DNA of 64,000 bases from an uncultured virus (IMG/VR IMGVR_UViG_3300044631_003060) (Duplodnaviria > Heunggongvirae > Uroviricota > Caudoviricetes), in the IMG/VR virus record IMGVR_UViG_3300044631_003060; one strand, 5' to 3'. The position numbers were made by a program, and so were the translations under genes. Below are positions 4,267 to 64,000 of this stretch, piece by piece; within the stretch, counting starts at the first letter, position 1; every line of letters begins with the position of its first letter. The notes beneath the pieces were generated by a model, which was not told the DNA's origin, made no database searches, and worked only from the letters and a program-made list of their open reading frames with translations.

Positions 4267-4270
4267 AGAT

Positions 4271-42198: not shown

Positions 42199-42225
42199 AA
42201 AAAAGCCCCATAAATGGGACTTTTT
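42199..42225 (-). terminator. Putative terminator after the ATPase
   Basis: AAAAAGTCCCA-TTTA-TGGGGCTTTTTT on the minus strand. Confidence 0.6.
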
Positions 42226-42245
42226 AATAGTGTTACTTTATGTGT

Positions 42246-43064
42246 TTATTTCAAATTTGTGTAGTCGGTTAGTAGTCGTTTTTTAACCAATGAAACCGCT
42301 TCATCAATAGTGTACATGGGTTTATTCTTATTGTTTTTCATACGCATATATGGCGAGATTAGCTTTCTTTGGTTCATCATTACATATTCATTAATGACAT
42401 CATCTAACTTTTTCTTATCTACATAACCCATAAATTGCATCTCGTCAAGATTGACATATTGGTAAAATCGCTTGTTGCCCATGTTGTATTCATTATTAAC
42501 AAGCATCTCTACCAATTTAAGAAACTCATGTTTATCCTCGAACTTTTGAGCGTGTCTATCTACACTATCTAAGTTTTTGTGAAAACGCATCCAATTACAA
42601 TTTTGCCATATTTTAGTAGTAATACGCCCGATACTTTGAAAGTGCATGATAATATCCAAATCAACATGTCGATTAGTACATATTGCTCCTTCAATATCTT
42701 TTGGCAAATGGTCGGAAACATATCGGTTAATGTCCTCAATTAGCAAAAGCCCATTCCTATATTGTTCTAATATGATAAATAAGGTTTCGGCTATCTTTTC
42801 CAAAGTCATACGCCGACCATCGGGCATAAATGGTCTAATTCTTCGCGCCTCAATTTGTGGATGCACACTAAATCTCACTATATCTTTTAGCGCTATTGAT
42901 TTAATATGTGTGAACTCGTCGTTTACATCCAATATAAGCGCTCTACGACCAGCAACACCTTTAGCGGGATTACCTCTCACATATCCTTGTATCATAAGGT
43001 TTGTGGTGTAAGATTTACCCACACCCTTTTTACCTACGGCTACCCCTAAAAGCGGTTCTCTCAT
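42246..43064 (-). CDS. A32/FtsK-HerA-type genome packaging ATPase
   Basis: Walker A GKKGVGKS, Walker B LLLIED, and NRHVDLDIIMHFQS (RH..Q motif typical of A32-like ATPases). Confidence 0.75.
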   Translation of the reverse strand: MREPLLGVAVGKKGVGKSYTTNLMIQGYVRGNPAKGVAGRRALILDVNDEFTHIKSIALKDIVRFSVHPQIEARRIRPFMPDGRRMTLEKIAETLFIILEQYRNGLLLIEDINRYVSDHLPKDIEGAICTNRHVDLDIIMHFQSIGRITTKIWQNCNWMRFHKNLDSVDRHAQKFEDKHEFLKLVEMLVNNEYNMGNKRFYQYVNLDEMQFMGYVDKKKLDDVINEYVMMNQRKLISPYMRMKNNKNKPMYTIDEAVSLVKKRLLTDYTNLK

Positions 43065-44155: not shown

Positions 44156-44616
44156 TAGTCAAGTTGTTCTTTTTTTAGTAATTCCATCTTTTCCTTACAT
44201 AGATTGTATTTGGTTAAAATCATAAGGTCAAATTTATTATCGTTTTTAGGTGAAAGCAATTTTCTTTCCATTTCGTTTTTAATGCGGGACAAATAACTTC
44301 TATCGCGATTTAGTTGCCTTCCAATTTCGGCTACACTATATCCAAGGTTGGTAGTGCTTATATAGATGAGTATTCCAAAAGCATATTTTCGAGGATACTT
44401 TTTTTGTGTTCCATTCAACAATTCACTTTTGCTTATCTCAAAAACGGACATCACCGCTTTTACGCAATCGTTAAATTTTTCATAGTTGCCAAGTTTATTT
44501 TGCCTACTATTATTTAATACGCTAATAGTATTTGCATACCCAATATCGTCGAGTGTGTGTGCAAGCGCCGTAAATAGCTTATACAATAACCGATGCGTGT
44601 TCGTCTTTTTGTTCAT
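44155..44616 (-). CDS. HTH protein, DnaA C-terminal-like
   Basis: VFEISKSELL..PRKY..YSVAEIGRQLNRDRSYL. Confidence 0.6.
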   Translation of the reverse strand: MNKKTNTHRLLYKLFTALAHTLDDIGYANTISVLNNSRQNKLGNYEKFNDCVKAVMSVFEISKSELLNGTQKKYPRKYAFGILIYISTTNLGYSVAEIGRQLNRDRSYLSRIKNEMERKLLSPKNDNKFDLMILTKYNLCKEKMELLKKEQLD

Positions 44617-45010
44617 TGTCGTTGTTGTTCATAATAATTATAGCACCTTCTTCGCCCCATACTTTTTTCATACCCGCGTAAGTATGAACAAAACTATCGT
44701 TGTCGCATAGAGCGTCTTTAAATGCCTTTATCAAGTTGTCTAAATCGGGTTTAGTTGTGTGAGGTTCTCCGCACATGCGTTCTCTCTTTTTGCCCGACCA
44801 CGATTTAGGCATTGACATGACAAAAATAAGAGAAAGTGGATTGCTAACAAAATATCTATCCCGTAGAGCGTAAGTTTTTAGTGAGTTTGCAAAATTACGA
44901 TAAGCCAAAACGGGTTTCCTTGGCGGCTTCAACCAAACATCGCGCCTCGTCATCCGTGGTTTAGCCACGGGTTCTATGTCCCACTTCAAATATTGAATTT
45001 CGTTGTCCAT
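44579..45010 (-). CDS. rusA: RusA-family Holliday junction resolvase
   Basis: PVAKPRM..MPKSWS..KPDLDNLIKAFKDAL..DS. Confidence 0.8.
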   Translation of the reverse strand: MDNEIQYLKWDIEPVAKPRMTRRDVWLKPPRKPVLAYRNFANSLKTYALRDRYFVSNPLSLIFVMSMPKSWSGKKRERMCGEPHTTKPDLDNLIKAFKDALCDNDSFVHTYAGMKKVWGEEGAIIIMNNNDNEQKDEHASVIV

Positions 45011-48179: not shown

Positions 48180-48340
48180 CACTCTAATTCCGCATCCCTT
48201 ATTTTGTCCTTAACTTCGGGGTTATATGGCTTTTCAATTTTGACAATACGAGGTACGAGGTAAAACAACACAAAAGCGCCACCAAGGGATAGCACTAATG
48301 CTAACAAAGTTATAGTTATGTGTTTTTTACCAACTACCAT
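48179..48340 (-). CDS. 53-aa membrane protein (not in ORF track)
   Basis: MVVGKKHITITLLALVLSLGGAFVLFYLVPRIVK... Confidence 0.6.
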   Translation of the reverse strand: MVVGKKHITITLLALVLSLGGAFVLFYLVPRIVKIEKPYNPEVKDKIRDAELE

Positions 48341-48615
48341 AATATCTTATCCGCGTAATACCCTGGTGTTCCTCTTCTATGCCTATCTTTTTCATGCCGA
48401 CTTTTGTACGCCTTGCGACGCTTGTTGGCAAATTCCGCACCTTTGGTAGCTTTGAATGTGGGATAATCACCCATACCCAACGCTCCTATGCTTGCAAGTT
48501 TATCACCTTGCTTATCGTAGACATCAATTTTTTTGCCCTTAACTTTTGAGGGCTTGATAGTTACGCCAAGTTTTTTAGCTTGGGCATAGGAGTGCGATTT
48601 TATGCGATATGGCAT
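48334..48615 (-). CDS. Small basic protein (DUF5754-like)
   Basis: KKIDVY..SIGALGMGDY..RRKAYKSRH..PGYYADKILW. Confidence 0.6.
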   Translation of the reverse strand: MPYRIKSHSYAQAKKLGVTIKPSKVKGKKIDVYDKQGDKLASIGALGMGDYPTFKATKGAEFANKRRKAYKSRHEKDRHRRGTPGYYADKILW

Positions 48616-48640
48616 AAATTAATAAAATTAGGTAGGGCGA

Positions 48641-48838
48641 TTACTTCGCTTTCCTTCTTCCCGTTGCGGGGTGTTTGTGCGCCCTTGTTTTGCGTTTAGG
48701 TGCGTAGGCTTGTTCGTGTTTTTGTTTGCTTGTGAAAGCGCCATCAACGAATTGACCTTTTTTGTTACGCCCGTTTCTTCCTTTTGATTTAGTAGTTCCA
48801 CCGAACCACTTTTTGATTGTTGTTAAAATGCTTGCCAT
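48641..48838 (-). CDS. Small highly basic protein
   Basis: K/R-rich; RNKKGQF. Confidence 0.55.
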   Translation of the reverse strand: MASILTTIKKWFGGTTKSKGRNGRNKKGQFVDGAFTSKQKHEQAYAPKRKTRAHKHPATGRRKAK

Positions 48839-49333: not shown

Positions 49334-49729
49334 CTATTTCCTATATTTCTTAACTTTTTTTGCGATGTCTTTTGGTTGTGCCACAAATTGCTTTCCCTTC
49401 TTTGTACCTATGCGTTTGGCTCTTGTCGTAGCCGCATATTCACTTGGTGTAAGTGCTTTTATTGCTTTTTCGGGCAAATATCTTTCTCCCGTTTCTCCGC
49501 TTGGTTTACCCGATTTAGTGCGCCAATTTTGTTTGCTCCATTTAACAAGAGAATTGTCGGAAGATTTTTTACCTCTATAACCGCCACCCGCATCTTTGTA
49601 TAGTTTGACGGCTAATTGTGCTTTTCTTGCCGACCATTCACCCTTGTCGCCACCTTTTGTTCCCGCTTTAACGCGAGCAACAATTTTGCGCCATAGCGTA
49701 GGGTTTGTTTTAATTGCGGTTGTTGCCAT
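49334..49729 (-). CDS. Basic protein (DUF5872-like)
   Basis: KGGDKGEWSARKAQL..YKDAGGGY..SLVKWSKQNW..GERYLP. Confidence 0.65.
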   Translation of the reverse strand: MATTAIKTNPTLWRKIVARVKAGTKGGDKGEWSARKAQLAVKLYKDAGGGYRGKKSSDNSLVKWSKQNWRTKSGKPSGETGERYLPEKAIKALTPSEYAATTRAKRIGTKKGKQFVAQPKDIAKKVKKYRK

Positions 49730-49745: not shown

Positions 49746-50912
49746 TTATCTTTTTGTTATATTCTCGACTACCTTGTATAGTTTACCGCCGCTTATCGGT
49801 TCTAACACCATGATATAAAACCTATCCTTATCGCCAATAGCATTATTAATATAATTTTTTGCTTCTTCAAGATTTTGCGTAAGTAGCGCGGTCATTTCTT
49901 TCATGCTACCGCCAAAAGCGGTGCGGTGATATGGGATAATTTTTATTTCACCACCATCGGCATATTTATTTGTATCATCAAATAGCCATTTAACATCGCC
50001 GAGTTTGTCTTTTTTGGTTACAACTATACTATCTCCGCTACTATCCATAATTTCAATTTCATCGTATCTTTTCCAATTCTTTAATACCCATATTTTCGCA
50101 AGCATCAAATCGTTGGTAGAATATATAGGCTCACTTTGATTGGCTCTATCATAAATTTCTATATTGTGTATTTCTCCGCCGTGCGCCAAATTTTTTGGTC
50201 GCCCTAACACTTTAGTAGCAACCGCATACCCAACTTGTTTGGCTTCTTTTTCATCGTAGGTTTTGCCATATTTGTCTTGATATTCTTTTTTTACGGGTTT
50301 ACCAACATAATATTCCGCTACCTTTTTTACCAATTTCTCAAACGCTTCCCTTGTGGTTTCCTTTTTCTTTTTGGCTTTTGGCTTGACAATTAAACCGCCT
50401 TTTTTGTAATTACGGAAATAATAACCATCGTATTCAAAAAAGTCATGCTCTAAATCACTTCCAAAACTATCAAAGTCAAAATACCTCTCAATAGTATCTT
50501 TTCCCAATTCCGATACACCGCCAATACTATCTACATATTCTTCGGCTAACTCGGTAGCGCTACTAAATTGCCCATAATAATGTTCATCAATCCAATCTTC
50601 TAAATCGCTTGGGTCATAATCACTAATAATACTTGCTATTACTTCAAAGGGTAAGCCTTTTTCCTCCGAAGCCTTATATGCCTCAAGAAGCCTATCTAAA
50701 GCCGCTTCGTCCATATCTTCTTCGTATAGGCTATCGGGTATATCATTTGCATCCGTGAATATCGGGTCTTCATAAGGTATGCCATTCATTTTTGCCCATT
50801 TACGGGCTTTATTTTTGGCATAAATTAATATATCCTCACCACTTTCGTAGTTGTCCAAATCTATGTATTCGCCATCGTCTATGGATGGTATTGTTATGTA
50901 TAGTTCCGCCAT
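49746..50912 (-). CDS. ardA: Polyprotein with N-terminal ArdA-like antirestriction domain
   Basis: Acidic N-terminal domain: GEYIDL..YYGQFSSATELAEEYVD..ERYFDFDSFGSDL..DGYYFR; then YKKGG, LAHGG and YADGG separated modules. Confidence 0.7.
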   Translation of the reverse strand: MAELYITIPSIDDGEYIDLDNYESGEDILIYAKNKARKWAKMNGIPYEDPIFTDANDIPDSLYEEDMDEAALDRLLEAYKASEEKGLPFEVIASIISDYDPSDLEDWIDEHYYGQFSSATELAEEYVDSIGGVSELGKDTIERYFDFDSFGSDLEHDFFEYDGYYFRNYKKGGLIVKPKAKKKKETTREAFEKLVKKVAEYYVGKPVKKEYQDKYGKTYDEKEAKQVGYAVATKVLGRPKNLAHGGEIHNIEIYDRANQSEPIYSTNDLMLAKIWVLKNWKRYDEIEIMDSSGDSIVVTKKDKLGDVKWLFDDTNKYADGGEIKIIPYHRTAFGGSMKEMTALLTQNLEEAKNYINNAIGDKDRFYIMVLEPISGGKLYKVVENITKR

Positions 50913-50946
50913 TTTGTTATTTATTCTATATCAAATTATTTACGTT

Positions 50947-51447
50947 TTACAATATACCATCATCGCCAAAACTCATATACCCGTCTTGCGATATAATTAT
51001 GAAATCCACGATTGGCATGTCCATAATTTTTGATTGTTCTTTGAATTGGTTTTTTAACGCAATATCTTGTTCGGATGGTAGTAATTTCCCCGATGGATGA
51101 TTATGAACTAATATGATTGCTTGCGAACCAATTATCAAACCACCCGCCCACACCATACGAGTGTCTATTACAGTTGCGCTTGCACCACCCGTAAACATCA
51201 TTGATATACCTATAATCTTATATGCTTTGTTTAGGTATATTACAAAAGCCATTTCCCTAACCGATATTTGATTTTCAATTACGGAATTGCTTTTGATGTA
51301 ATTTAACAAATGAGTATAAACATCCCTACTACTTGTTATTTTTGGTAATACATCATATTCTATTTTGCCCGTTCTAACCATAGTTAGTTCGGGTACATAG
51401 AATTGCAAATTGTCTATCTTGCTTTTTAGTTTTTCTAAATTATTCAT
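50947..51447 (-). CDS. JAB/MPN (RadC-like) domain protein
   Basis: REMAFVIYLN..GGASATVID..IILVHNHPSG..PSEQD..DFIII. Confidence 0.85.
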   Translation of the reverse strand: MNNLEKLKSKIDNLQFYVPELTMVRTGKIEYDVLPKITSSRDVYTHLLNYIKSNSVIENQISVREMAFVIYLNKAYKIIGISMMFTGGASATVIDTRMVWAGGLIIGSQAIILVHNHPSGKLLPSEQDIALKNQFKEQSKIMDMPIVDFIIISQDGYMSFGDDGIL

Positions 51448-52712
51448 ACCAATAAATGTTCATTAGGTGATAGTTCGGGATACTTTTTTGGTGGATTATT
51501 GGTTATAGGTGTTTGTCGGTTTGCAATTATATTACCACCTTTTTTATATTCCGTTGGTATTGCCGCATGAACATTAATAGTGTAATCCAAAATATACAAT
51601 TCCTTTTTTTTATTTTTCCATAATTCAATATCTTCTTGACTTGCGGCAATATATCCATAATAATCCTCATACTTGCATAATACCGATGTTTGTATATATT
51701 CTCCCTCGCCAATATCCCAATCAAAATCATCCATCTTGTAATTAGTGCCTATAATATGCTCATTGATATAATCAACAAGCCCTCTTTTTGACTTAAATAC
51801 CTTATAGATTTTTTCATCCCAACCACCAATAGCTTCAATACTTTGTCCGTTTTCATAATCATCAACGCTTGCATAGGCACTATAACCAAATAAGAAATAT
51901 TTTTTATCTCCGCCCATTAAAGCGCCACCTTTTGCATATTTGCCGTCATAGTACAAGTATTGGAATATTTCCGACCAACCGCTTACACCATTCCAATCAA
52001 ATTTATAAAACGTCTTAGTACCAAACCCTTTTGATTTGACTATCTCCTCTCTTCCACCTAATTCACTTTCATTCTTCTTAGCCAACCATAATCTATACGC
52101 TCGCATAATATGAATGTTTTTGGTATAATATGGTTTCATAGAAGCATCGACTTTTGGATATTTTTTTAAAAAAGATTTTATTTCATTAGTATTAGGTTTG
52201 CCATAATTTAGTATTCCTCCCTTTGCGTAAACGACTTCTAATACGGATTGTGGCAAGTAGTTTAAATTTCCGTCTATTTCAACTCCAACTAATTCTTCTT
52301 CGTCGCTTGGCTCACTAAAAATATAACCTTCCGTACCTTTGGGTATTTCCGCACCAACATCATCCACGCCTAAGTCGATTGTTGTTTTAACCAATATTTT
52401 GCCTAAAAATGGATTGTTAAATCCCGAACCCCGTGGCTCTTTCATTTGGGCATAGTATTCGTCATTCGTTATTCTACCTCCGTCCATAAACTCCTCATAT
52501 CCCTCTAACTCGTTTAGATTAGTGCCTATTTTACGCAAACCATAAGCCTCCCCATTCAAGTAATAATCAAAAGTATATCCTTCGGCTTCTACTTCTTTAA
52601 GGGCTTTTGCAAGACCATTGTAATCTCCGTCAATAAAAGCGTCTTCGTGCTTTTCAAGAATAAGTTTTAATTTTCGGGGCATATTGCGGTCATCTCCAAA
52701 AAGGTCTTTCAT
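51444..52712 (-). CDS. Polyprotein of unknown modules separated by xxxGG motifs
   Basis: FMDGG, YAKGG x2, YKKGG. Confidence 0.7.
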   Translation of the reverse strand: MKDLFGDDRNMPRKLKLILEKHEDAFIDGDYNGLAKALKEVEAEGYTFDYYLNGEAYGLRKIGTNLNELEGYEEFMDGGRITNDEYYAQMKEPRGSGFNNPFLGKILVKTTIDLGVDDVGAEIPKGTEGYIFSEPSDEEELVGVEIDGNLNYLPQSVLEVVYAKGGILNYGKPNTNEIKSFLKKYPKVDASMKPYYTKNIHIMRAYRLWLAKKNESELGGREEIVKSKGFGTKTFYKFDWNGVSGWSEIFQYLYYDGKYAKGGALMGGDKKYFLFGYSAYASVDDYENGQSIEAIGGWDEKIYKVFKSKRGLVDYINEHIIGTNYKMDDFDWDIGEGEYIQTSVLCKYEDYYGYIAASQEDIELWKNKKKELYILDYTINVHAAIPTEYKKGGNIIANRQTPITNNPPKKYPELSPNEHLLV

Positions 52713-52730
52713 GCTTTTTAGCTAAATGTG

Positions 52731-55043
52731 TTATTTTGTTTTAGTACCGCTAACCGATTTTTTATTTGATAATTGCGCTCTATACACTTTGGCGGCTACT
52801 TTTTTTCCTACTTCTTGGGCTTCGGCTTTATCGTATGTTTTGCCATATTCTTTTTGGTATTTGGGGGCTACTTTTTGCCCCTCATATCTCTTGGCTACTT
52901 TTTCCGACAAACCCTTGAAACCTAATTTACCGCCTTTGGCATAACCCGCGCCCTTTGAATAATTAGTATCGGTTCTTCTACCGCCTTTTACCACATAAAC
53001 ATCAACCAAATTATAATCTTTATTCATATTGTAAACCAACGCACCCATTAGGGCTTGTTGTATGGCTTCCACGATACTATTTGCGTGAATTAAAACTTGA
53101 ATAAACTTGTATGGCTCTTTCTTATTCATAAATACCGCCGCCCATTCCGCCTTATTGAAACTCCCGCCTTTATCGTATGTGTTGTTAATGTTTCGTTTTT
53201 GATACCATTCATCAATTTCTTGTTTGGAGTAACCCGATTTTAATGCTTTTTGATAAAACATATTGTAGTCGGTTTTCGCTTCGTCATAAAACAACCGAAA
53301 CAACTCTTGATTTTCGTGTTTCCATTCCCACCCCAAATCTTGACCTTCGATTATATTAACTTTACCGCCTTTGGCGTAATATTTTCCACCTTTTGCGCCT
53401 TTTAGTAATATATGCAAGTTTTCTTCCGTCGTACTCAATGTTCCATCGCCATCTCCACCCATATCATTATCTAACTCCCATTGCGCTTCCAAAACTTGTT
53501 CTTTTTCTTTTGGTGTAAGTTGTTGATAGATATTATACGCTTCGATAGATTGGTCTTGTATCATTTCCAAAAGTTTGTATTCCCAATCGTAATTATCGTT
53601 TATGAAATTACTTTTCTTGTACAAATTATTGATTTGGATAACTTTACCGCCTTTGGCATAATTTTCTTCTTCGCTAATTATGCCGTCTTTTAATAAAATG
53701 CTTACAATATCCTCGTAATACATATCAAATGGCGCTAATGCAATAAACCCTTCTATGTTTTCCCTTATGTATTGCTCAAGTTCATCATCATCATACACAT
53801 ACCCATCATTTGATAGGTCTTCTAAAAGTATTCCGAAATCTTCTATGAGCAAACCTTGTTGTAACAAAGCATCGGTCAATTCGCTTGATGAATAGTCCAA
53901 GCCCGTAGTTGTCATTGAATAATAACCCGTCCTATTTTGCATCAACCAATCTTTTACCATGTCCTCGTCAAACAAGTATTTTTCATCGTTCAAATCTTTT
54001 ATAAAATCATCAAACGCTTGTTCTTCTTCATGGAGTTGCGCTTCGTAGTAAAGAGTTTCCATGTCTTCAAAACCTAATAGGTAGTTTTCGGTTTGCTCAA
54101 TGTAATCTTGAGCAGGTTTACCATATACAAATGCGTTGTACCCGCTATATGCCGTTGGTTCTACAAGCGTATTATCGGGATAATATTCACTAAAATACGC
54201 TATGGCTATCTTATCGTAAAAATCGCCACCATAATCGGTAAAACCAAAAGCAATTACGGGCGTGTCCGTTTCTTGAATAACATCACCCTCTATACCAATC
54301 GCTTTGCGTAGTTTTTCTTTTAATTCCTCGGAAGCAAATTCATCGGATAAATTCTTAACTCTTGCGCTCTCTCCCGATATACCGCCTCTACTAAATTTTA
54401 TTTTAATTCTTCCACCATGAGAGTATTTAGCCATTTCTTTCAATTCGGCTTTTACTCGTTTTGCGGTTTCGCCTCTCCAAGTGCTTGCGTTAGCCAAAAA
54501 GTAATTTACTATTGACCTACCATCATCCATACCATAATTATCGTCAATACTATTCATTGTGGACATAGCGTCTAAATATGGTTTAGCACCAAAATATACA
54601 TTTTTCCAATCGGCACGAATTTCGGCGGCAATAACATGTAGCGGTCTTTTGGTAGTTCCACCATGAGCATAATATTTGCCTTTGAGCAAGCCATTATATA
54701 ATTTTTTAGCGTTTACGGGTGTAAAATTCAAGTCGCGTTGCAAAGTAGTTTCGTCGCCATTGTAACTATAAAGTTTTTCGTTTTCTAACTCCTTTCGAGA
54801 AACACTACCGATTTCTACATCTAAAATTTCATAGTCCACAATAGCCCAAATATAATCGGGGTCATTAGGGTCGGAATTTAATAAATACCAATTACCAAAA
54901 CCGAATGGGTTTACTATTTTTGCCACGACCATTTGTTTTGATAGGTCGTTACCCATTGGATATTGTTTAAAAAGCATCTTGTCAATAGATGCGGTAAATA
55001 GTTTCGGGCTATGGTTGCGTAGTGGTTTAAGTTTATCTCTCAT
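52731..55043 (-). CDS. Polyprotein with N-terminal DUF2958-like domain and further modules
   Basis: VVAKIVNPFGFGNWYLL..EIGSVSRKELE; RPLHVIAAEIRADW..AKPYLDAM..FLANASTWRGETAKRVKAELK; seven xxxGG motifs. Confidence 0.7.
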   Translation of the reverse strand: MRDKLKPLRNHSPKLFTASIDKMLFKQYPMGNDLSKQMVVAKIVNPFGFGNWYLLNSDPNDPDYIWAIVDYEILDVEIGSVSRKELENEKLYSYNGDETTLQRDLNFTPVNAKKLYNGLLKGKYYAHGGTTKRPLHVIAAEIRADWKNVYFGAKPYLDAMSTMNSIDDNYGMDDGRSIVNYFLANASTWRGETAKRVKAELKEMAKYSHGGRIKIKFSRGGISGESARVKNLSDEFASEELKEKLRKAIGIEGDVIQETDTPVIAFGFTDYGGDFYDKIAIAYFSEYYPDNTLVEPTAYSGYNAFVYGKPAQDYIEQTENYLLGFEDMETLYYEAQLHEEEQAFDDFIKDLNDEKYLFDEDMVKDWLMQNRTGYYSMTTTGLDYSSSELTDALLQQGLLIEDFGILLEDLSNDGYVYDDDELEQYIRENIEGFIALAPFDMYYEDIVSILLKDGIISEEENYAKGGKVIQINNLYKKSNFINDNYDWEYKLLEMIQDQSIEAYNIYQQLTPKEKEQVLEAQWELDNDMGGDGDGTLSTTEENLHILLKGAKGGKYYAKGGKVNIIEGQDLGWEWKHENQELFRLFYDEAKTDYNMFYQKALKSGYSKQEIDEWYQKRNINNTYDKGGSFNKAEWAAVFMNKKEPYKFIQVLIHANSIVEAIQQALMGALVYNMNKDYNLVDVYVVKGGRRTDTNYSKGAGYAKGGKLGFKGLSEKVAKRYEGQKVAPKYQKEYGKTYDKAEAQEVGKKVAAKVYRAQLSNKKSVSGTKTK

Positions 55044-57468
55044 CGTTTCTGTGGGTTTTTGTTTTGGGCATTAGGTGTGTCAATTCACCACCTTTTGCAT
55101 ACTTAACTCCTTTTTTCACATATACGCCGTCTAATATGTTTGCGGCATCAATAAAGGTTGTCTTGCCTTTGCGTTCAACCTCTACCTCTTGTATCATGTA
55201 ATTTGGAACATAATTATACTTGCTCGACAATTTGCCTTTTAGCTTACCTCCTTTAGCAAATTCACCCGCTTCGTTTGAGTATGCTATATCGTCTAATAGT
55301 ATTAAATCGCCTACACCATCCTCTCGCTCATATCCTATTGGAGTGTCATTTGGAACTCGCTTATTTGTTTCTTTGTAAACATATTCTTGAAAATCGCCAC
55401 TATCATCGCCCTCGGTATATATTATAACATAATCTTGATATTGTTTGGGATTTTGAGCAAATATTTTTTTAATATTTTTGCTTGTTAATGAATGTACAGC
55501 ACCGCCTTCGGCAAAACGCCCCGCACCAAACATGCCGCCATGGGCATTAAATCCCTGTGGTTTGTTTTTGATTAGTAAATAATAAACGCTACTTGGTACA
55601 TCTTCTCTTGGTGCAGTATCCATACTATACCAAAGCATATATGCTTTTTTGAAATTTTCTTTTTTAATCATAAGCAAAATAGCTTCATGCTCTTTCTTGT
55701 CGGCACGCATCATTGCAACACCCGACTTATCGCCCTCTTTTTGATATTTTAATATTTTTTTATCGTAATTGGCAATATACTTCTCATAATCTTTTACAAC
55801 CTTTTCAAGATGTTTTTCTGTTTTGCCGCCTTTGGCGTAATGCTTACCGAGTTCTTCTAATGACAATACTTCAACAACCTCATATCCGTTGTTTTCCGTA
55901 TCTTTTTTGAAAAGTTTTACGGCTTCTTGTTTTGCTTTTTCAACACTTGGTGCTTCCAAAGTATATGCTTCCGCCGTATTGTGTACTACACCTATGCCAC
56001 TTTTTCTTTTTTCTCTCTTTGCTCCATACACGCGAATATGATAATATTTATTTCCGCTTTTGGTTGTTTCGAGTTCTTCTAATGACAACACTTCAACAAC
56101 ATCATATCCGTCGTTTTCCGTATCTTTTTTGAAAAGTTTTACGGCTTTTTGTTTTGCTTTTTCAACACTTGGTGCTTCCAAAGTATATGCTTCCGCCGTA
56201 TTATGTACTACGCCTATGCCACTTTTTCTTTTTTCTCTCTTTGCTCCATACACGCGAATATGATAAAATTTATTTTCGTCCACACCACCGCCTTTGGCGT
56301 ATTTCTCGTTGTGTGCTTTGTGGGTTTTGTCAATGTATTCTAAAACCTCGGTAACTTTATTGTGTCCATATTTTTTTGCCATAGACGACCAAAGGCTACG
56401 GCTTCCAGTAACAACATCTTTTGGATTATGATAAGCATCCACCATTTTCTCAAAGTCTTTCTGGTCAATACCAAATGTATTTTCATACTCATAATCCTCA
56501 CCCTCTTCAACATAACCGCCATGCGCAAACTTTTCGCGCATTTTGTACAAACGATTATATTCCGCCCCATTATCCTTGCTAAAATTTTCTTCCGCATGAT
56601 TTAAGGCGGCATAATAATTTTTTCTATTCTCGGCTATTAATCCCATGATACGATTGTATTCCGCACCATTGTCTTTGCTATAATTTTTTTCGGCTTCATT
56701 GAGTTGTGCATATAATTTGTCGGGGTCTACAATACCCCCGTCTTCAAATGTACCCGCACCATGTAACATGCCACCAAGTTTTAAGTATGGATATTTGCTA
56801 CGACCAAATCTATCAACGCGGTTTTCGCGATACTCGTAATATGTGTTGCCTTCTTTAGAAATGCGCTTACCAGGCGTTTTGGCTTTGCGAGAAGCGTCGC
56901 GTTCTTTGTCCAATGGTCTTGTTTGCCAATTACCTTTTGAACCCGCTACAACAGTCGCACTATTGAGAGTAGGGTTTTTAGCAAGGAACTCTTGCAACTT
57001 TTTGTATTGAGTATTGGCGTTTTTAACCGCTTTGGTTTTTTGGGCTTGTATCATTTGTCCCGCACGCTTTACCGCATCCGTCCATTTTTCTTCGCCCTTT
57101 TTGTAAATCTCTTTTGCCAATTTGGTAATGTTTCCCCTATCGGTAGGTTTCGCCGATGCCGTGCTTTTACCCTTTTTGGGTTGAACTACACTTGCTTGCG
57201 CTATTTTTTTAGCCATGGCTTGTGGCGTTTTTGGTTCGGGGGTTTTGGCTACCTTGCTTTTGATGCTTTCGGGATACTTTTGGGCAATATTGGAATACAA
57301 TGCTTCCATACTATTTTCCGCTACTTTGTAAGCCTCTTTGCTATCCGCATCGGTGCTATTTTTTAATTTCGTGTCATTAAGATATTTTGCTATCTCTTTA
57401 ACTTTCTCTACCGCTTTTTCGGGTAATTTGGACAAATCAATGTCTTTATATTTTTCTATTGGTGTCAT
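55033..57468 (-). CDS. Basic polyprotein with xxxGG-separated modules and internal duplications
   Basis: About nine xxxGG motifs; KTPGKRISKEGNTYYEYRENRVD. Confidence 0.7.
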   Translation of the reverse strand: MTPIEKYKDIDLSKLPEKAVEKVKEIAKYLNDTKLKNSTDADSKEAYKVAENSMEALYSNIAQKYPESIKSKVAKTPEPKTPQAMAKKIAQASVVQPKKGKSTASAKPTDRGNITKLAKEIYKKGEEKWTDAVKRAGQMIQAQKTKAVKNANTQYKKLQEFLAKNPTLNSATVVAGSKGNWQTRPLDKERDASRKAKTPGKRISKEGNTYYEYRENRVDRFGRSKYPYLKLGGMLHGAGTFEDGGIVDPDKLYAQLNEAEKNYSKDNGAEYNRIMGLIAENRKNYYAALNHAEENFSKDNGAEYNRLYKMREKFAHGGYVEEGEDYEYENTFGIDQKDFEKMVDAYHNPKDVVTGSRSLWSSMAKKYGHNKVTEVLEYIDKTHKAHNEKYAKGGGVDENKFYHIRVYGAKREKRKSGIGVVHNTAEAYTLEAPSVEKAKQKAVKLFKKDTENDGYDVVEVLSLEELETTKSGNKYYHIRVYGAKREKRKSGIGVVHNTAEAYTLEAPSVEKAKQEAVKLFKKDTENNGYEVVEVLSLEELGKHYAKGGKTEKHLEKVVKDYEKYIANYDKKILKYQKEGDKSGVAMMRADKKEHEAILLMIKKENFKKAYMLWYSMDTAPREDVPSSVYYLLIKNKPQGFNAHGGMFGAGRFAEGGAVHSLTSKNIKKIFAQNPKQYQDYVIIYTEGDDSGDFQEYVYKETNKRVPNDTPIGYEREDGVGDLILLDDIAYSNEAGEFAKGGKLKGKLSSKYNYVPNYMIQEVEVERKGKTTFIDAANILDGVYVKKGVKYAKGGELTHLMPKTKTHRNDER
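55849..56275. repeat. Tandem duplication, 222-bp period (74 aa)
   Basis: YHIRVYGAKREKRKSGIGVVHNTAEAYTLEAPSVEKAKQ..VVEVLSLEEL twice, nearly identical in DNA. Confidence 0.9.
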
Positions 57469-57482: not shown

Positions 57483-60400
57483 TTAAATATCATCGAGGTC
57501 AAGTTCGTCAAGTTTGTTTTTGATTTCTTTGGCTTTACTAATTTTTGGTTGTTTTGGTTTTGTTGTTTTAGATTTTGTTGTTGTAGTCGATGTGGTGAAT
57601 GTAATACCATTTACCGACATGATAGTTTGCAAGAGTTCTTGCATTTTACCCTTATTAATATAATTTACAATTATATCGTCCAAAAGATAGGGATAAATCC
57701 ATACTTTAATCCAATTATCAACGCCTAAATTATCTTGCCCCGATATTCCTACTACAGTAAAAGCACTTTCGTCATAAGGCGTATAGAGCGTTGCTTGATA
57801 TTGAGTATATCCTTTTGTTATCAAGCCGCTATCAATCAATTCTTCATAGTGTGGATTTGTGCTACCTAAAGCACTAAACATATAAAACAAGTTTACAAAT
57901 TGCACTTTTTCTTCAAGTGTGCGTCTTTTTTTGGATAATAAATCTTTTAATTGGGCTTCGGTTTTAATCGCACCAATATTCAAATCTTCCAACACATCAA
58001 ATTCTTCGTACCATTCGCTCGGAATTTTGGTCAATTTAGGTGTTGTTGTTGCGGGCGGTGTAGCGACTTGATTGCCTACATAATCTTCAACGTATTTTTC
58101 CGACCATTCTTTCACATATTCTTGTGGAACAATTATAGTATAATTAAAATCGTTGCTTTCCGCTATTCCTTTTAAAGGCTCGTACAAGTAATATAAATTC
58201 GCTGTTCCGTATTTAGAAGCGTCATGTCGCATTTTCTTGATATACTCCTCATATTGAGGGGTATTCGGAATGTTTGACGGGTAAAATCCAAAAAGAAAAT
58301 ATTTATTTATATCATTTGGTGTTTCTATCGTGAACACTCTTCTTTTGATAGTAAAATCACTTATGGAAATATCTAAATTTCTTTTGATTTCTTCTACCAT
58401 GTACGCACTATGTGTGTTACCACCATCATTCCAATCATACCAATCTTCGTCCCACTTAAATATTGAAGTGGTTGCGGGTGTTGTTGTGGTGGTAGTTGGT
58501 GTAGTTCCGATGTTAAGATAAGCACGAAGTTTTACCCATAGATTTTCAAAAAACATGATTAGTTGGTCTTCGGGTAAAGTTATTAGTAGCCTATCATTAT
58601 TTGGCATTTTAACAACATGTGTTTCAATATCCCTATATCTTGGCGCTAAATAATCATTCACATAACTTGCCCAATCGGAATACATATCTTGTAGAGTGGT
58701 TAAAGCAATGTTGGCAATCGTAGCAAAATTGGGATTGCCGTTATTTTTTATTATCATTTCACGCAAATCGGTTGCATTCCCGTCCATGTCGGTAAATTGC
58801 CTAAATTGAAAATCTATATCGTAATCGTCATAAATTACTCCAAATGTAATGGGTGTTAGATTATTATTAATCTTGTCAAAAAGCGCCATATCAAGAACGC
58901 TATCGTTCCAATCAATATCAATTTGTGTAATTGGCGTTGTTGTCGTAGTGCTTGTAGTGGTCGTAGTTTGAGTAGTGCCTCTTTTTAATTTTAACATTTT
59001 AGCAAAATCTTCCACAAACCTTGACCAAAACTCTTGTAATGTATCAAAAGGCAAAATAACTTTGGTGTCATACTTATCCGACCATTCATCTAAGCCGATA
59101 TAGTTTTTATCAAAATCATCCGCGTAAACCTTAAAGCCTTCTTTGTTCATTGTATCGAGTATAGCATAAATTAGCGCACGAATATGTTGTAGTGTGTCTT
59201 TTGACGTTTGGTTGTTCGCTATATCCTCAAATATGATAGCTTTCAAGTCAATAACATCACGGGTGTTTTGCTCTTGAAATTGATATACGCCCATTACTAC
59301 TCCATATTCGTTGCGTAATATTTCTTCCGCATCAAAACCCGCTCCTTGTGTTTCGTTTACTTGTACAATAAAATTATTGTAAATCGCGGGTGTGCTTGCT
59401 TGGCTATCCCAATCTACCAAAACATCGTCCGACGACATTACGGCTTGAGGCGAGGTAGATTGTGGTTTGATAAGTTTGAAATCATACTTTGAATTAAAAT
59501 CGTCTATCTTATCTACGGGTATTACAAGCAACAAATCATACGATGTGTCCGTAAGCATATCTCTCAACTCTTCATATTCGCTCCAAAACTTGCTTGTATC
59601 TTCATAGCTTTCTTCGGTTTCCGCCATCTCGCTTGTTAAATCGCTATATGCCCTTGACATTTTTTCGGTTTCGGGGGTAAACCTAACCAAAAGATAGTTT
59701 TTGGATACTCCCTTTTTCGTACTAACAAACTCGCGTTGGTCTATGGTTAATTCGGGGTTTTTAATGTCATATTTATTTTTGAACTCATGCAATTCGTCCA
59801 CCATAATATCTTCGTACTTGTCGTCTATCCAAGTGAAGCCGTCTTTATATTTTGGCGTTGGTGTCGGTGTAATTATTTTTGTTTTTCTTGTCTTTGTTGG
59901 TTGTGGCGTTGTAGCGGTTGATACGGGTGTGTTGCCCATATATACTAACGGAGTTTGAGTGTTTCCCCAATCAATAGGTAATGCTTTTAATGTTTTTACA
60001 AACTCGTCTTTAAACTCCCCCATGTTTCTATACCTATAACTATATTCTACATCCTTTGCTTTTGATTGCAACTTGCTTATTTTGGTAGAAGCGTCCATAG
60101 CCCTACTTGATGAATAGCTTGCATATAGATTTTGAATAAAACTTTCGGATATATATTCAAAAACTGGAGCATGACTTGCATCCTTAAAATTACTTATATT
60201 GTCAAATGCTTTTTCGGGCGTTTGAAACGCGCCCATATAGTTAGCATATTTTAAGAAAGCTATGGCTCTTGGAGTTAATTTTATAGGAAATATCTTTTTG
60301 GCTTGTGCTTCGCTAAAATAGTTTGTAGCGTCTTTATTTAAAACCTCCATCACAAACAAATAATACATAATTGCATCGCCATAAGCTATCGTAAAATAGT

Positions 60401-62543
60401 TTGCTTCGTCGGTATTTAATTTATTAATATTTACCCATCTCTCGAAAGCCATGGTTTTTAATTTAATGCTTTCATCCGACCTTGTTAAAACTATTTCATA
60501 ATTTAAGGGCAACTCATTGTTTAATTGACTTACCAAGTATAATCTTAAATTATCTACATCTCTAAAGTCGGCGTATTGAGAAATTATTTTGCTTTCTTGC
60601 CCTATCTCATAACTTGTTGTTGCGGTTTGATTTTGAAACAAAAATGATTGCTCAACAAAATCTTTGGAGATAAATTGCGATATACCATCGACATTCTTTT
60701 CATAAGCTACAACATCTTCGCTATTGTCATTAAACCGCCAAGTAAATTGATTTTTTCTACGCGAGGTTTCTTGTTTCGCTACGGGTTCTTCTTCGGGTAG
60801 TTCTTGCTCTATTAAATAAAGCGCATAACTTTCGGATATAAGCGACTTAACTATATCTATGTATTCGGGGTTCTTTTTTGACAATTCGTTTATTCTACCC
60901 CAATCAAGTGCCGATATAGTATTCAAAAACGTATCGTCATATTCCTCGCCCAAAACATCTATAATTGATTGATATGGGCTTGTTGCGGGTTGCGCCGCTC
61001 CCGTAGTCGTTGTTTTGGTGGTGGGTGAAACACTTAAAAACGCGTCCTTTATTATTTTGCGTATTTGCGGATAAATTTTTTGCGTACTCTTATCAATATT
61101 TGCTTTTAGATATTCGTCCGTTATACAAAATATTTTTTGACCCGTAAACGGCAATTTGTCTATGTAGTTCAAAAGGTTTTGATATTCTACAACATAATGA
61201 CAAATAACATGTTCGCCTTTTTTATTGATAGCCAAACCCGAATATAAAATGATTAATTCTTCGCTTTTATTATTTATCTTAAACCTATCCCCAACACCAT
61301 AACTATTATCATTGTTTGCATCATCTATTGAAAAACAAGCAAAATATCCGCCGCCCGCGTAAGGTATTACGGGCATGCCATATAAATAATTTTCAATAAT
61401 TATATCTTCTTTCCACAAATCACCACGACTTATAGCAACTCCTTCATATTGATAGTATGTGGAATAATCAAGCGTATCAAACCCATCAAATTGAAATTTT
61501 AATAAAGTACGAACTTCATTAGGGTTGGGGCTAAATAAGTTTTCTTGTGCGCTATTTTTGTTTTTAATTATGTATGCAAACGATTTACGATTTGACGCAT
61601 AAGAGCCTAAATCCATATTGCCTAAAGACATTCTATTTAACATGCCGTCGTCGCGCACAATACACAACTTATCAAATAGTACGTTGTCCGTAAAAGGCAA
61701 AACGGGCATAGGAAAAGGAGTATAGTTCAAAGATTGATATACCAACCCACTTGGTAATGCATCCCAAATATTGCTTATGCCAAATTTATTTCGGTACTCT
61801 TCCCGTACACCATTACTTTTAATAGTTATTTCGGATTTTTCTTCAAAATATGAGTAGGCAACTATCTTATCCCCGCTATCTACAGGCTTTTTGGGTTTTT
61901 GTACTTTGATAGGTTCTATTCTTGGCAAGGGTTTTTCTTGCTTCATAAAAACAATACCCGATGGCTTTGGCATATTGATACTCCAATAAGCCATTTCCAT
62001 ATTGTCATATACGAAATTTAGAATATTGGTTTGCTCGGCGCTTGCAATGTTTTTAGAACTATCTAAAATCTTAGCAATACCTTGTCTTGTGTTTTCTATT
62101 AAAGACAAATACCCTACAACGGGATTGATTACAACACCAATCGGATATAACCTATCTTGTTTCGGTGCGCTCGCGCTTACGGCATCCGTGGACACTTCAC
62201 GCTTAATAAATCCGATAGTCAAATAATCCTTGTTGGTCTTATTGTTGTAATATTTATCGCCTATGGAAATAGGTTTTTCCATTGTGGGAACATAGGTTGA
62301 AACCAAATCACTATCTAATATCTTACCATAACGCGGCTCAATAGCATTTATGCCCTTAATGTATGCCAATGCTTCTTTAGGGCTTGTTATTGATTTATTT
62401 ATGTTAAATACGGGATACTTGTCTATGTCGCCACTTGTGCTATATGCTAAATAGACAATGTTCCCGTCTATATCGGGTTCGGTTAGCGGTATTATATATT
62501 TACCACCTTGTTTTATACCTATGTAAATTTCTCCTACTTTCAT
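57483..62543 (-). CDS. Large 1686-aa protein with Thr-rich linkers and repeated C-terminal modules
   Basis: Long ORF; poly-Thr/Pro linkers separate modules of about 150 aa. Confidence 0.75.
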   Translation of the reverse strand: MKVGEIYIGIKQGGKYIIPLTEPDIDGNIVYLAYSTSGDIDKYPVFNINKSITSPKEALAYIKGINAIEPRYGKILDSDLVSTYVPTMEKPISIGDKYYNNKTNKDYLTIGFIKREVSTDAVSASAPKQDRLYPIGVVINPVVGYLSLIENTRQGIAKILDSSKNIASAEQTNILNFVYDNMEMAYWSINMPKPSGIVFMKQEKPLPRIEPIKVQKPKKPVDSGDKIVAYSYFEEKSEITIKSNGVREEYRNKFGISNIWDALPSGLVYQSLNYTPFPMPVLPFTDNVLFDKLCIVRDDGMLNRMSLGNMDLGSYASNRKSFAYIIKNKNSAQENLFSPNPNEVRTLLKFQFDGFDTLDYSTYYQYEGVAISRGDLWKEDIIIENYLYGMPVIPYAGGGYFACFSIDDANNDNSYGVGDRFKINNKSEELIILYSGLAINKKGEHVICHYVVEYQNLLNYIDKLPFTGQKIFCITDEYLKANIDKSTQKIYPQIRKIIKDAFLSVSPTTKTTTTGAAQPATSPYQSIIDVLGEEYDDTFLNTISALDWGRINELSKKNPEYIDIVKSLISESYALYLIEQELPEEEPVAKQETSRRKNQFTWRFNDNSEDVVAYEKNVDGISQFISKDFVEQSFLFQNQTATTSYEIGQESKIISQYADFRDVDNLRLYLVSQLNNELPLNYEIVLTRSDESIKLKTMAFERWVNINKLNTDEANYFTIAYGDAIMYYLFVMEVLNKDATNYFSEAQAKKIFPIKLTPRAIAFLKYANYMGAFQTPEKAFDNISNFKDASHAPVFEYISESFIQNLYASYSSSRAMDASTKISKLQSKAKDVEYSYRYRNMGEFKDEFVKTLKALPIDWGNTQTPLVYMGNTPVSTATTPQPTKTRKTKIITPTPTPKYKDGFTWIDDKYEDIMVDELHEFKNKYDIKNPELTIDQREFVSTKKGVSKNYLLVRFTPETEKMSRAYSDLTSEMAETEESYEDTSKFWSEYEELRDMLTDTSYDLLLVIPVDKIDDFNSKYDFKLIKPQSTSPQAVMSSDDVLVDWDSQASTPAIYNNFIVQVNETQGAGFDAEEILRNEYGVVMGVYQFQEQNTRDVIDLKAIIFEDIANNQTSKDTLQHIRALIYAILDTMNKEGFKVYADDFDKNYIGLDEWSDKYDTKVILPFDTLQEFWSRFVEDFAKMLKLKRGTTQTTTTTSTTTTTPITQIDIDWNDSVLDMALFDKINNNLTPITFGVIYDDYDIDFQFRQFTDMDGNATDLREMIIKNNGNPNFATIANIALTTLQDMYSDWASYVNDYLAPRYRDIETHVVKMPNNDRLLITLPEDQLIMFFENLWVKLRAYLNIGTTPTTTTTTPATTSIFKWDEDWYDWNDGGNTHSAYMVEEIKRNLDISISDFTIKRRVFTIETPNDINKYFLFGFYPSNIPNTPQYEEYIKKMRHDASKYGTANLYYLYEPLKGIAESNDFNYTIIVPQEYVKEWSEKYVEDYVGNQVATPPATTTPKLTKIPSEWYEEFDVLEDLNIGAIKTEAQLKDLLSKKRRTLEEKVQFVNLFYMFSALGSTNPHYEELIDSGLITKGYTQYQATLYTPYDESAFTVVGISGQDNLGVDNWIKVWIYPYLLDDIIVNYINKGKMQELLQTIMSVNGITFTTSTTTTKSKTTKPKQPKISKAKEIKNKLDELDLDDI

Positions 62544-62839: not shown

Positions 62840-64000
62840 TATAGTAATCTATTAATAATATCTAATATGTCGTTCATTCTCTTTGTACCTTCTTCCACGT
62901 CGATTTTGCTATCATAATAAGGCGATTGTGGGTTGCTCGGTGCGGGCTTTGTAAAAAACGCTTGAGTGATTATTCTTTGTAACCTATCGCGTATGTCTTG
63001 GTTGGTTTGGTTTTTTTCTTTTTCTCTTTTTATTATTCTTCTCAAAGCGTTTTCGGGTTTGCTCGCAAGCAATATTTCGGCTATGTCGCTTATGCGATAA
63101 AATTCTTGCTCTATTGCGGTTTTATTTGCATCAAAATCATTATATGGCTGTCCTAAACCACCTACAATAAACAATTCTTTGCTTTTAACCTTTGTCTTGT
63201 TTACGCCTAATCTTTTTTGCTCTAATAGGTAGTTTTTGTACATAGCAAAACCATCCCTATAATCACTTTCAAGGTAAAGAGTGCTACCATAACCTTTTAC
63301 CTCTTTCCCGTATCGCTTCCTACTTATACCCTCGCTATTTTGCCACATAGCCCACCTAAAAAATCTTGGGTCGGCAATCGCGGTAGAAATTGCTTGCAAA
63401 TCAATGGGCGCTCCATAATCCTTAGCTACCCATGAATAGTAAACTTGCTCTCCGCTCGTAGTGTTATATGCCCTCAAACCATACACCCTAACTTTTGAAC
63501 CCGCTTGTTCAAGTTGTTCGGCAAGCATTATTATAGGCGTTACTTTTGCCATCATCCCCATACTATCAAGGTCGGCAAGACCGCCCGCAATTACAAAAAC
63601 ATCGACATAATCGGGTTCGCCACCTTTTTTGGGTCGCTTCAAATATATCTTTTTGGTTTTAGTACCATATTTGAGCGTGTATTCTTTGCCGTCTTTATCA
63701 AACGCTTTATTTTCATTAGCCGCAAAAAACCTATCGCCTACGGGTATCAAAAAAGTCGATGGAACATTTTTTAACATCTCGTAAGTACCTTTTTGTTGCC
63801 GCCTTGCAACATATTGTTTCGGCTTGCTACTTTTACTTGTCGTGCCACGATAGTAATAAGTTCCATTAATATCTTCAATAACACCCGTATCTAAATTAGC
63901 TAACTCGTCCACTTCCTCAATATACCATTCAACCAAACGATATAATGTCGGTGCGGCAAGCCCAAACGAAAATATACCCGTTGCATCTTCCGTTGCTTTA
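62839..64000 (-). CDS. vWA/CobT-like protein, C-terminal part (5' end beyond window)
   Basis: Frame open to the window edge (..GIFSFGLAAPTLYRLVEW..); VDVFVIAGG..LAEQLEQAGSKVRVY..KDYGAPID..PRFFR. Confidence 0.55.
   Translation of the reverse strand, partial: KATEDATGIFSFGLAAPTLYRLVEWYIEEVDELANLDTGVIEDINGTYYYRGTTSKSSKPKQYVARRQQKGTYEMLKNVPSTFLIPVGDRFFAANENKAFDKDGKEYTLKYGTKTKKIYLKRPKKGGEPDYVDVFVIAGGLADLDSMGMMAKVTPIIMLAEQLEQAGSKVRVYGLRAYNTTSGEQVYYSWVAKDYGAPIDLQAISTAIADPRFFRWAMWQNSEGISRKRYGKEVKGYGSTLYLESDYRDGFAMYKNYLLEQKRLGVNKTKVKSKELFIVGGLGQPYNDFDANKTAIEQEFYRISDIAEILLASKPENALRRIIKREKEKNQTNQDIRDRLQRIITQAFFTKPAPSNPQSPYYDSKIDVEEGTKRMNDILDIINRLL

Follow-up and report, generated by a model that had tools for sequence, protein, structure and literature searches.

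Polyvalent proteins, the class described by Iyer, Burroughs, Anand, de Souza and Aravind (2017; PMC5512222), are giant proteins of phages and conjugative elements in which a single chain joins several (2-15 or more) unrelated globular domains; they carry anti-restriction or host-modifying modules and show extreme domain shuffling. The text of that study argues that they must be processed into units by MPTase, a zincin-like domain that is embedded in about 36% of the class. Here we analyse a 64,000-nucleotide stretch of DNA from an uncultured member of the Caudoviricetes (IMG/VR record IMGVR_UViG_3300044631_003060), which we will term the window. Four of the five genes at 49746-57468, and another gene at 682-4281, are to judge from their sequences polyvalent (multi-effector) proteins, and a short motif around Gly-Gly, which we will term the junction, lies between their modules.

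The proteins of the window and its relatives share the traits listed above with the described class, and they also share the module types ART-PolyVal, ArdA, NUDIX, RadC, RelA/SpoT, zeta-toxin kinase, and LPD11. They differ from the class as set out in PMC5512222 in that our scans of the window's five proteins, of 18 giant relatives, and of open reading frames (ORFs) of G003 revealed no MPTase; G003 is a related contig of 76.7 kb that is rated 100% complete. The terms 'linker', 'glycine', 'boundar', and 'spacer' do not occur in the text of PMC5512222, whose supplements may show such junctions. Our search of the literature since 2018 on polyvalent proteins and proteolysis returned no description of a junction motif, and searches with motif strings (YAKGG, YADGG, FAKGG, MADGG, YAHGG, MAKGG, and FADGG) returned nothing on phages. 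It appears that the junction has not been described in the literature that we searched.

Other viruses offer partial parallels. HC-Pro of potyviruses and related leader proteases, which are papain-like autoproteases of RNA viruses, cut between the two glycines of Y-x-V-G-G, so that an aromatic residue lies three places before Gly-Gly at the C-terminal border of an N-terminal module, as it does here. In contrast to HC-Pro, the N-terminal DUF2958 module in the window has no conserved Cys or His, and its model does not resemble a protease fold. In giant phages, the motif of the prohead protease ends in Glu. One phage protease (gp245 of SPN3US or gp175 of phiKZ) cuts this kind of short repeated motif in internal head and ejection proteins as the virion matures (PMC10052503; PMC7411985). 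These cuts mostly remove N-terminal propeptides. Giant phages have a recognisable prohead protease, whereas none was recognised here.

The precedent on which a preliminary description of this locus drew, cleavage of polyproteins at Gly-Gly-Xaa by pS273R of ASFV (the virus of African swine fever), has indeed been published (PMC8728581). ASFV and adenovirus processing resembles our case in that precursors of a DNA virus carry repeated Gly-Gly at product borders (PMC8728581), and the junction is like the sites of such clan CE proteases in that position +1 is permissive and excludes proline. It differs in that the products would be effector modules instead of core-shell proteins and in that cleavage here is putative. 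Also, the Ulp1/C48 family (PF02902) had no match in the window or in any of five related contigs, although divergent proteases could escape such a search and the window is a partial genome.

A Gly-Gly motif confined to a few genes

We defined the strict motif as [FY]x[KHDRE]GG and a 7-residue form that adds [VIL] at +2 (positions are counted backwards and forwards from the Gly-Gly). The strict motif occurs 2, 4, 7, and 7 times in the genes at 49746-50912, 51444-52712, 52731-55043, and 55033-57468, all on the minus strand. This makes 20 copies in 2,391 amino acids (aa), against a mean of 0.55 and a maximum of 4 in 2,000 composition-preserving shuffles, and the 7-residue form was seen 16 times with 0.097 expected. 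Near-variants (LAHGG, NAHGG, LKLGG, and GAKGG) bring the total to about 24, which agrees with the roughly 23 copies in four of the five genes that were reported at first; the fifth gene, which encodes a RadC-like protein, has none. The 1,199-aa protein at 682-4281 has 6 strict copies (0.20 expected), so that the seven copies originally counted there hold only if MENGG is included. An ORF at 3-671 does carry the motif at its N-terminus, as was claimed (it starts MRTNHFAKGG). The motif that was also claimed at the C-terminus of 9961-11016 is a loose match: the protein ends in LQKGGVV, which has the Gly-Gly but has L instead of F or Y at -3.

All 27 strict motifs of the window sit in 6 of its 112 ORFs (stop-to-stop in six frames, at least 100 aa). 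The remaining 106 ORFs (20,863 aa) hold 247 GG dipeptides, including 35 and 38 in two glycine-rich proteins, and not one strict motif. The enrichment is thus far above chance.

The junction is conserved at the protein level and not at the DNA level. Across the 27 copies, the aromatic position uses TAT, TAC, or TTT, alanine uses all four GCN codons, the next position uses AAA, AAG, GAT, GAC, CAT, or AGA, and glycine uses all four GGN codons in about the proportions of overall glycine codon usage in these genes. As synonymous codons vary at every position, selection acts on the peptide instead of on a conserved DNA signal. An alternative is that the motif is a recombination signal, or hitch-hikes with copied modules, and has no function in the protein. 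This would explain why modules are heavily shuffled exactly at motifs (see below), but with codons this varied the copies share too little nucleotide identity to support homologous exchange, and yet their amino-acid pattern persists. We consider this alternative to be largely refuted and extremely improbable.

The motif lies at the borders of exchangeable modules

The preliminary description placed the motif at boundaries between unrelated modules, for example right after the ArdA-like and DUF2958-like domains, and saw the modules as plug-in units. These claims held up in several kinds of comparison. In the 388-aa protein (49746-50912), the Pfam match to ArdA covers residues 42-164 and the motif begins at residue 169; in the 770-aa protein (52731-55043), the DUF2958 module ends at about residue 124-127 and the motif is at 125-129. 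Leaving out gaps between tandem motifs and short C-terminal tails, the window's segments range from 53 to 246 aa. Those of at least 35 aa number 3, 4, 7, 7, and 8 in the five proteins and fall into different homology families.

Homologues that stand alone start or stop at the junction. All 27 fused DUF2958 proteins have the motif at the residue where all 16 stand-alone DUF2958 proteins end (...GEHV-stop or ...GEHY-stop, as compared to ...GKYYAHGG... in the fusions). The segment between YAHGG and YSHGG of the 770-aa protein (residues 130-206) is 60-68% identical to small actinophage proteins; in Mycobacterium phage Iwokeuplikedis, it matches residues 4-80 of an 80-aa stand-alone product. Similarly, residues 17-120 of the 1,199-aa protein, which lie just before FAKGG, match the stand-alone gp61 of Mycobacterium phage Barnyard (44% identity). 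The motif thus starts directly where a module has its C-terminal residue, and no more than about three residues separate the Gly-Gly from the module that follows.

To ask how modules are combined, we cut 178 non-identical motif-rich proteins after each GG, which gave 1,574 segments with a median length of 82 aa (quartiles 57 and 114). Among segments of at least 35 aa, 956 of 1,297 had a reciprocal match with at least 80% coverage in another protein, versus 316 of 1,141 when an equal number of cuts was placed at random. The segments group into 530 module families with very varied neighbours. One family of 29 members, which includes the N-terminal module of the 422-aa protein (51444-52712), has 17 different upstream neighbours and 24 different downstream ones. 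DUF2958 is always the first module: its 117 members have 2 kinds of upstream neighbour and 55 kinds of downstream neighbour. Judging from these homologies, modules are exchanged as units between junctions.

The predicted structure of the 770-aa protein is consistent with this. An AlphaFold2 (AF2) model from an alignment of 40 sequences had a mean predicted local distance difference test (pLDDT) of 60 and five confident domains (about residues 11-127, 480-527, 590-620, 630-686, and 706-765). The Gly-Gly of every motif is in a stretch with pLDDT below 50 that adjoins confident domains, so the motifs are outside of these domains. This test is weaker than the homology tests, as pLDDT is below 50 for 359 of the 770 residues, an effect due in part to the shallow alignment. 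A fold search with the whole model returned no match.

Consensus of the junction

When 8,000 candidates were scored against the 770-aa protein, 501 of them qualified as relatives (E <= 0.001). In the best 120 of the 501, we counted 540 strict motifs, as compared to 21 +/- 5 in 20 shuffles; all 120 had at least one motif and 94 had at least three. At 1,243 GG sites, the most common residues were Y (30%), M (26%), or F (20%) at -3, A (58%) at -2, K (33%) or D (23%) at -1, E, K, or M at +1, and T, M, I, V, or L at +2, which gives a consensus of (G)(G)x-[YMF]-A-[KD]-G-G-x-[TMIVL]. K, D, E, H, and N are all tolerated at -1, there is little restriction at +1, and the residue at +2 is beta-branched or hydrophobic in 77% of sites. 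Proline makes up 0.1% of residues at +1 (background 2.6%) and 0% over the range -1 to +6. The junction is about 9 residues long, and the sequence on either side is of ordinary globular composition as far as the motif itself, which implies that it is the sole spacer between modules.

A protein can have up to 26-28 copies of the motif, and across the relatives there are about 1,400 junctions between unrelated modules. Among 1,218 pairs of neighbouring motifs, 98 (8%) are exact tandems 6 aa apart. Conserved composite linkers occur at spacings of 10, 12, and 20 aa (for example, FADGG-FMNNV-YADGG), and the spacings peak at 6, 10, and 20.

Is the junction a processing site?

Because hundreds of unrelated pairs of modules keep the same proline-free junction of 7-9 residues, we read it as a site that is recognised in trans. 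In particular, we propose that it is a processing site, to which we give somewhat less than an even chance, and only a small part of that chance goes to RadC (see below). An endopeptidase, either a host enzyme or the product of an unrecognised phage gene, would most likely cut at or after Gly-Gly. The precursor would thereby be broken down into single anti-host modules, be it while the virion matures or once the protein has been delivered into the cell. The polyvalent proteins themselves would be packaged into the virion, by analogy to polyvalent proteins elsewhere: proteomics of phage phi24B virions detected gp47, which is a polyvalent protein (preprint 10.64898/2026.04.10.717836), and we infer the same for the window. 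The invariant Gly-Gly, the near absence of proline at +1 and the permissiveness of that position, the length of about 9 residues, and the separate poly-threonine linkers in a 1,686-aa neighbour (described below) all fit a cleavage site.

Several observations weigh against processing. First, we recognised no enzyme for it. Besides the negative result for PF02902 that was given above, no protease family was found among 75 ORFs of the window (Pfam), and neither MPTase nor any other peptidase family was found in the 18 giant relatives. In G003, our scan took in the ORFs of 90-1,000 aa that do not span fetch boundaries (76 of 102) and found no processing protease, only the cell-wall enzymes CHAP, M15, SLT, and glucosaminidase. 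The absence of RadC from motif-rich loci and from related contigs, as described below, is of the same kind. Second, some residues of the junction count against it. Adenain and deubiquitinase-type Gly-Gly sites have a hydrophobic residue at P4, whereas the junction has hydrophobic Y, M, or F at P5 and alanine at P4 (58%). Nor does +1 avoid L, F, Y, and W, the residues that destabilise bacterial proteins when N-terminal (14%, versus 17.6% in the background). Third, an uncleaved hairpin, hinge, or docking element would account for the tandem and composite motifs about equally well, and the exact tandems and composite linkers resemble a structural or binding repeat more than they resemble cleavage sites. 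Similarly, the hairpin that AF2 predicts at the first junction would be compatible with an uncleaved structural turn. Finally, the motif-rich loci all belong to one lineage, so that tests of co-occurrence have little independent weight.

Much of this leads to a second possibility, which is that the junction is structural and is not cut. In this model, the Gly-Gly would form a tight turn or hairpin that the hydrophobic residues at -3 and +2 hold in place; it would let small modules fold independently and would let the chain bend, compact, or thread a channel; tandem motifs would be a longer hinge. AF2 places strands at residues 124-126 and 129-131 on either side of the first Gly-Gly of the 770-aa protein, the preference at +2 and the lack of proline suit a small hairpin, and the sharp peaks of spacing come with conserved spacer sequences. 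Also, the C-terminal residue of stand-alone DUF2958 proteins (V or Y) aligns with the first hydrophobic position of the motif, and the searches of the window and G003 matched no processing protease. But the hairpin is predicted with modest confidence (pLDDT 66 for residues 121-130), and coil is what the model shows at this protein's remaining junctions. Furthermore, plain hinges would not be so uniform over about 1,400 junctions of unrelated modules, the same genome uses poly-threonine linkers elsewhere, and a hinge has no role at the extreme N-terminus of the ORF at 3-671 or before the 17-aa tail of the protein at 55033-57468. On balance, we view a structural junction as only a little less probable than processing.

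Third, the junction could be an uncut, multivalent docking tag that binds the interior of the capsid, a scaffold, a chaperone or ATPase, or itself (via weak aromatic-glycine contacts) and so loads or condenses virion cargo. The cargo peptides of encapsulins and the CsoS2 repeats of carboxysomes are analogies. The many copies per protein, the avidity that tandem copies would add, the presence of motifs at protein termini, and the conserved neighbours of the polyvalent genes, among which are a DUF7192 protein and an AAA_5 ATPase encoded just upstream, all suit such a tag. However, only one motif lies outside of the five giant proteins of G003, so no single-domain protein is tagged, and the tolerance of K, D, E, H, and N at -1 would be unusual for a charge-based contact. 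Also, no receptor was found, and the capsid proteins of this lineage are not recognisable. We consider a docking tag to be unlikely.

Candidate processing enzymes

If the junction is a processing site, the RadC-like JAB protein that is encoded within the cluster (50947-51447, minus strand; 166 aa; PF04002, E = 6.2e-27), or else a host RadC, could cut after Gly-Gly as JAMM deubiquitinases do. This stand-alone protein has no junction motif, its gene lies in the middle of the cluster among the polyvalent genes, and its JAMM metal site (E, HxH, S, D) is intact (E...HNHPSGKLLPSEQD). Those JAB enzymes that have been characterised cleave behind the Gly-Gly with which ubiquitin-like proteins end, but according to the text of Iyer et al., RadC lacks the groove for the ubiquitin tail and is more likely to be a nucleic-acid enzyme (PMC5512222). 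RadC is widespread in bacteria: a control search with PF04002 had matches in 8 of 14 reference genomes, including Bacteroides thetaiotaomicron. In two relatives (P0005 and P0036), RadC is an internal module with junction motifs on both sides, which is reminiscent of the proteases within viral polyproteins, but this is equally expected for any cargo module. Furthermore, RadC was not found within 10 kb in any of 26 motif-rich loci (phmmer), nor was PF04002 found in any of the five whole related contigs, two of which are rated 100% complete. Because of these absences, and because RadC is itself a module in P0005 and P0036, we rejected it as a dedicated general protease, and cleavage by a RadC-like enzyme of any origin seems very unlikely. 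When RadC was co-folded with Zn and a piece of the 770-aa protein (residues 540-580), the score was 0.02 against a mark of 0.34, which counts neither way.

We also considered whether DUF2958 could be an N-terminal leader autoprotease. A model of residues 1-127 of the 770-aa protein is a small beta-rich domain (pLDDT 87, predicted template modelling score 0.80) with no Foldseek match at E <= 0.001. The best VIA match was weak (Z 4.2, root-mean-square deviation 3.6 over 75 residues) and was to small SH3/Tudor/FeoA-like barrels. As the domain has no conserved Cys or His and the model is not a protease fold, we rejected this candidate. We found no functional account of DUF2958 in the literature. 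A double-glycine leader (15-30 aa at the N-terminus, ending in GG) with a C39 peptidase-transporter was rejected because the motifs are internal and repeated and because C39 had no match in the scans of the window or G003. A regular expression for an adenain-like H-D-Q-C triad gave spurious matches only.

Two modules of the 1,199-aa protein (residues 17-120 and 685-805) have a Cys...His...Asp-like pattern and weak similarity to each other (E = 8e-4). Neither has a Pfam match even at E = 10, and their family is confined to the window. They might have a papain-like fold.

A single viral lineage linked to Bacteroidota

For 42 related loci from IMG/VR viral contigs, we widened the pattern to [FYM]x[KHDRENQ]GG. 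ORFs with at least two motifs were present in 26 of the 42, or 27 if we include L037, whose 465-aa ORF dropped out when overlapping ORFs were removed. The motif-rich ORFs have 551 motifs in 62,748 aa (0.88 per 100 aa), versus 41 in 302,426 aa (0.014) elsewhere, and individual ORFs are as long as 3,272 aa, with 26 motifs. In G003, 51 motifs lie in five ORFs that total 7,464 aa (31% of the ORF residues), and the other 97 ORFs hold one. Further modules in the relatives include LPD11 (E = 5e-31, in L001 and L007), RelA/SpoT, and zeta-toxin kinase.

Every motif-rich locus is syntenic with the window (the genes in common include those for a small ATPase, DUF7192, an SLT transglycosylase, and a membrane protein), and 24 of 27 keep the gene for a 93-aa DUF5754-like protein, so they form one viral lineage. 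The window's gene content is phage-like (endolysin, RecT, PD-(D/E)XK nuclease, RusA, and a small terminase-like P-loop ATPase), and the window has no DNA similarity to isolated phages. Motif-rich relatives were found in two bacterial assemblies, both from Bacteroidota (a Sediminibacterium metagenome-assembled genome and an unclassified bin). Stand-alone DUF2958 genes without the motif occur in records from Cyclobacteriaceae, Syntrophomonas, and Wolfebacteria. A polyvalent protein of 3,633 aa from a Bacteroides phage has only 2 motifs among 21 GG, which is the chance level, so the junction is specific to this lineage and is not a general trait of polyvalent proteins.

Motif-bearing genes and their neighbours

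The 811-aa protein (55033-57468, minus strand) has no Pfam domain above noise. Its seven motifs begin at residues 241 (FEDGG, 56734-56748), 314 (FAHGG, 56515-56529), 390 (YAKGG, 56287-56301), 544 (YAKGG, 55825-55839), 652 (FAEGG, 55501-55515), 737 (FAKGG, 55246-55260), and 790 (YAKGG, 55087-55101), and only a 17-aa tail follows the last one. Within it, a 73-aa module is duplicated in tandem (55834-56274, minus strand; residues 399-471 and 473-545, 64 of 73 identical). There is no motif between the copies, so this recent duplication has acquired no junction.

In the 770-aa protein (52731-55043, minus strand), an N-terminal DUF2958 module (Pfam E = 1.5e-4) is followed by motifs at residues 125 (YAHGG, 54657-54671), 207 (YSHGG, 54411-54425), 217 (FSRGG, 54381-54395), 462 (YAKGG, 53646-53660), 556 (YAKGG, 53364-53378), 623 (YDKGG, 53163-53177), and 701 (YAKGG, 52929-52943). 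The 422-aa protein (51444-52712, minus strand) has motifs at residues 75 (FMDGG, 52476-52490), 162 (YAKGG, 52215-52229), 259 (YAKGG, 51924-51938), and 389 (YKKGG, 51534-51548), with a 29-aa tail past the last. The 388-aa protein (49746-50912, minus strand), whose ArdA-like module matches Pfam with E = 3.1e-8 and a PHROG anti-restriction family with E = 3.5e-11, has motifs at residues 169 (YKKGG, 50394-50408) and 317 (YADGG, 49950-49964) and the variant LAHGG at residues 241-245. Its residues 174-240 are similar to the C-terminal module of the 770-aa protein.

The 1,199-aa protein (682-4281, minus strand) combines ART-PolyVal (residues 339-523; PF18760, E = 7.5e-14) with two NUDIX modules (E = 1.8e-25, Pfam). 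Counting MENGG, its motifs are at residues 126 (3892-3906), 292 (3394-3408), 532 (2674-2688), 681 (2227-2241), 801 (1867-1881), 941 (1447-1461), and 1049 (1123-1137). The open-ended ORF at 3-671 (minus strand; 223 aa seen) begins 10 nucleotides past the stop of this gene and has FAKGG at residues 6-10 (642-656), so it looks like a polyprotein that was split a few codons upstream of a junction. The 351-aa protein at 9961-11016 (plus strand) has no Pfam or PHROG match, and its membership in the junction system is doubtful. Neither of these two ORFs had homologues in the fetched related sets. A scan with NCBIfam found no families besides RadC and NUDIX.

Directly upstream of the cluster is a 1,686-aa protein (57483-62543, minus strand) with no junction motif and no Pfam, PHROG, or NCBIfam match. 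It has five threonine-rich linkers (for example, TTQTTTTTSTTTTTP at residue 1190), which imply a second, different linker system in the same phage. The AAA_5 (MoxR/CobS-like) ATPase and DUF7192 pair lies just upstream of the polyvalent genes in many loci of the lineage, among them the window (62842-63999, minus strand), L002 (4621-7346), and G003 (41858-44860). DUF7192 is present in 20 loci, and the AAA_5 family is also found in 10 motif-poor loci; a chaperone or loading function for the pair is a guess. Just downstream of the cluster are three small, very basic proteins of 93, 65, and 131 aa (48334-48838 and 49334-49729, minus strand), of which the 93-aa one is the DUF5754-like protein.

The gene that precedes a DUF2958 gene has a conserved C-terminal tail, which ends ...LMPKTKTHRNDER in the window (55033-55086, minus strand) and ...PMPTSNTHKND in seven loci; the end of an ORF near 9991 of L004 is an example. 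In the window, the tail overlaps the start of the next gene by 11 nucleotides, and it may be a regulatory or coupling element.

The sole packaging-like gene encodes a 272-aa P-loop protein with weak similarity to HerA/DUF87 and to the terminase large subunit, and it is preceded by a conserved 364-aa protein (42249-44155, minus strand). Neither the window nor the complete G003 had a recognisable capsid, portal, or prohead protease family. In the ESM Atlas, the DUF7192 neighbour and the 364-aa protein matched only unnamed viral clusters. One of the relatives G001-G005 is classed as having inverted terminal repeats. Elsewhere, the window encodes unusual auxiliary functions: a protein with two PAS domains (16984-18102) and a block of APS-kinase-like, sulfotransferase, and cytidylyltransferase-like genes (21619-23275), all on the minus strand. 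G003 has a large sugar-modification block instead.

Implications

Polyvalent proteins are regarded as one of the main reservoirs of the counter-defence functions of phages, and the question that we address is how their domains are deployed. So far, the sole idea in print is that an embedded metallopeptidase lets them process themselves. A uniform junction that is selected as a protein sequence, at about 1,400 sites and in a lineage without a detected MPTase, gives a testable handle on this question, as a single junction peptide can be mutated, made into a reporter, or used as bait.

Because the motif locates the borders of modules with an accuracy of a few residues, the giant proteins can be parsed at the motif. 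Whatever the mechanism, this yields the roughly 530 families of small modules, most of which have no Pfam match, for anti-defence screens. As to the mechanism, we suggest only tentatively, as the odds seem to us to be on the other side, that these are true polyproteins of a double-stranded DNA phage, in which up to about 30% of the genome would encode modules that are cut at [YMF]-A-x-G-G by an unrecognised peptidase, possibly a host RadC/JAB enzyme. If so, the motif would be a natural parser for hundreds of undescribed effector domains.

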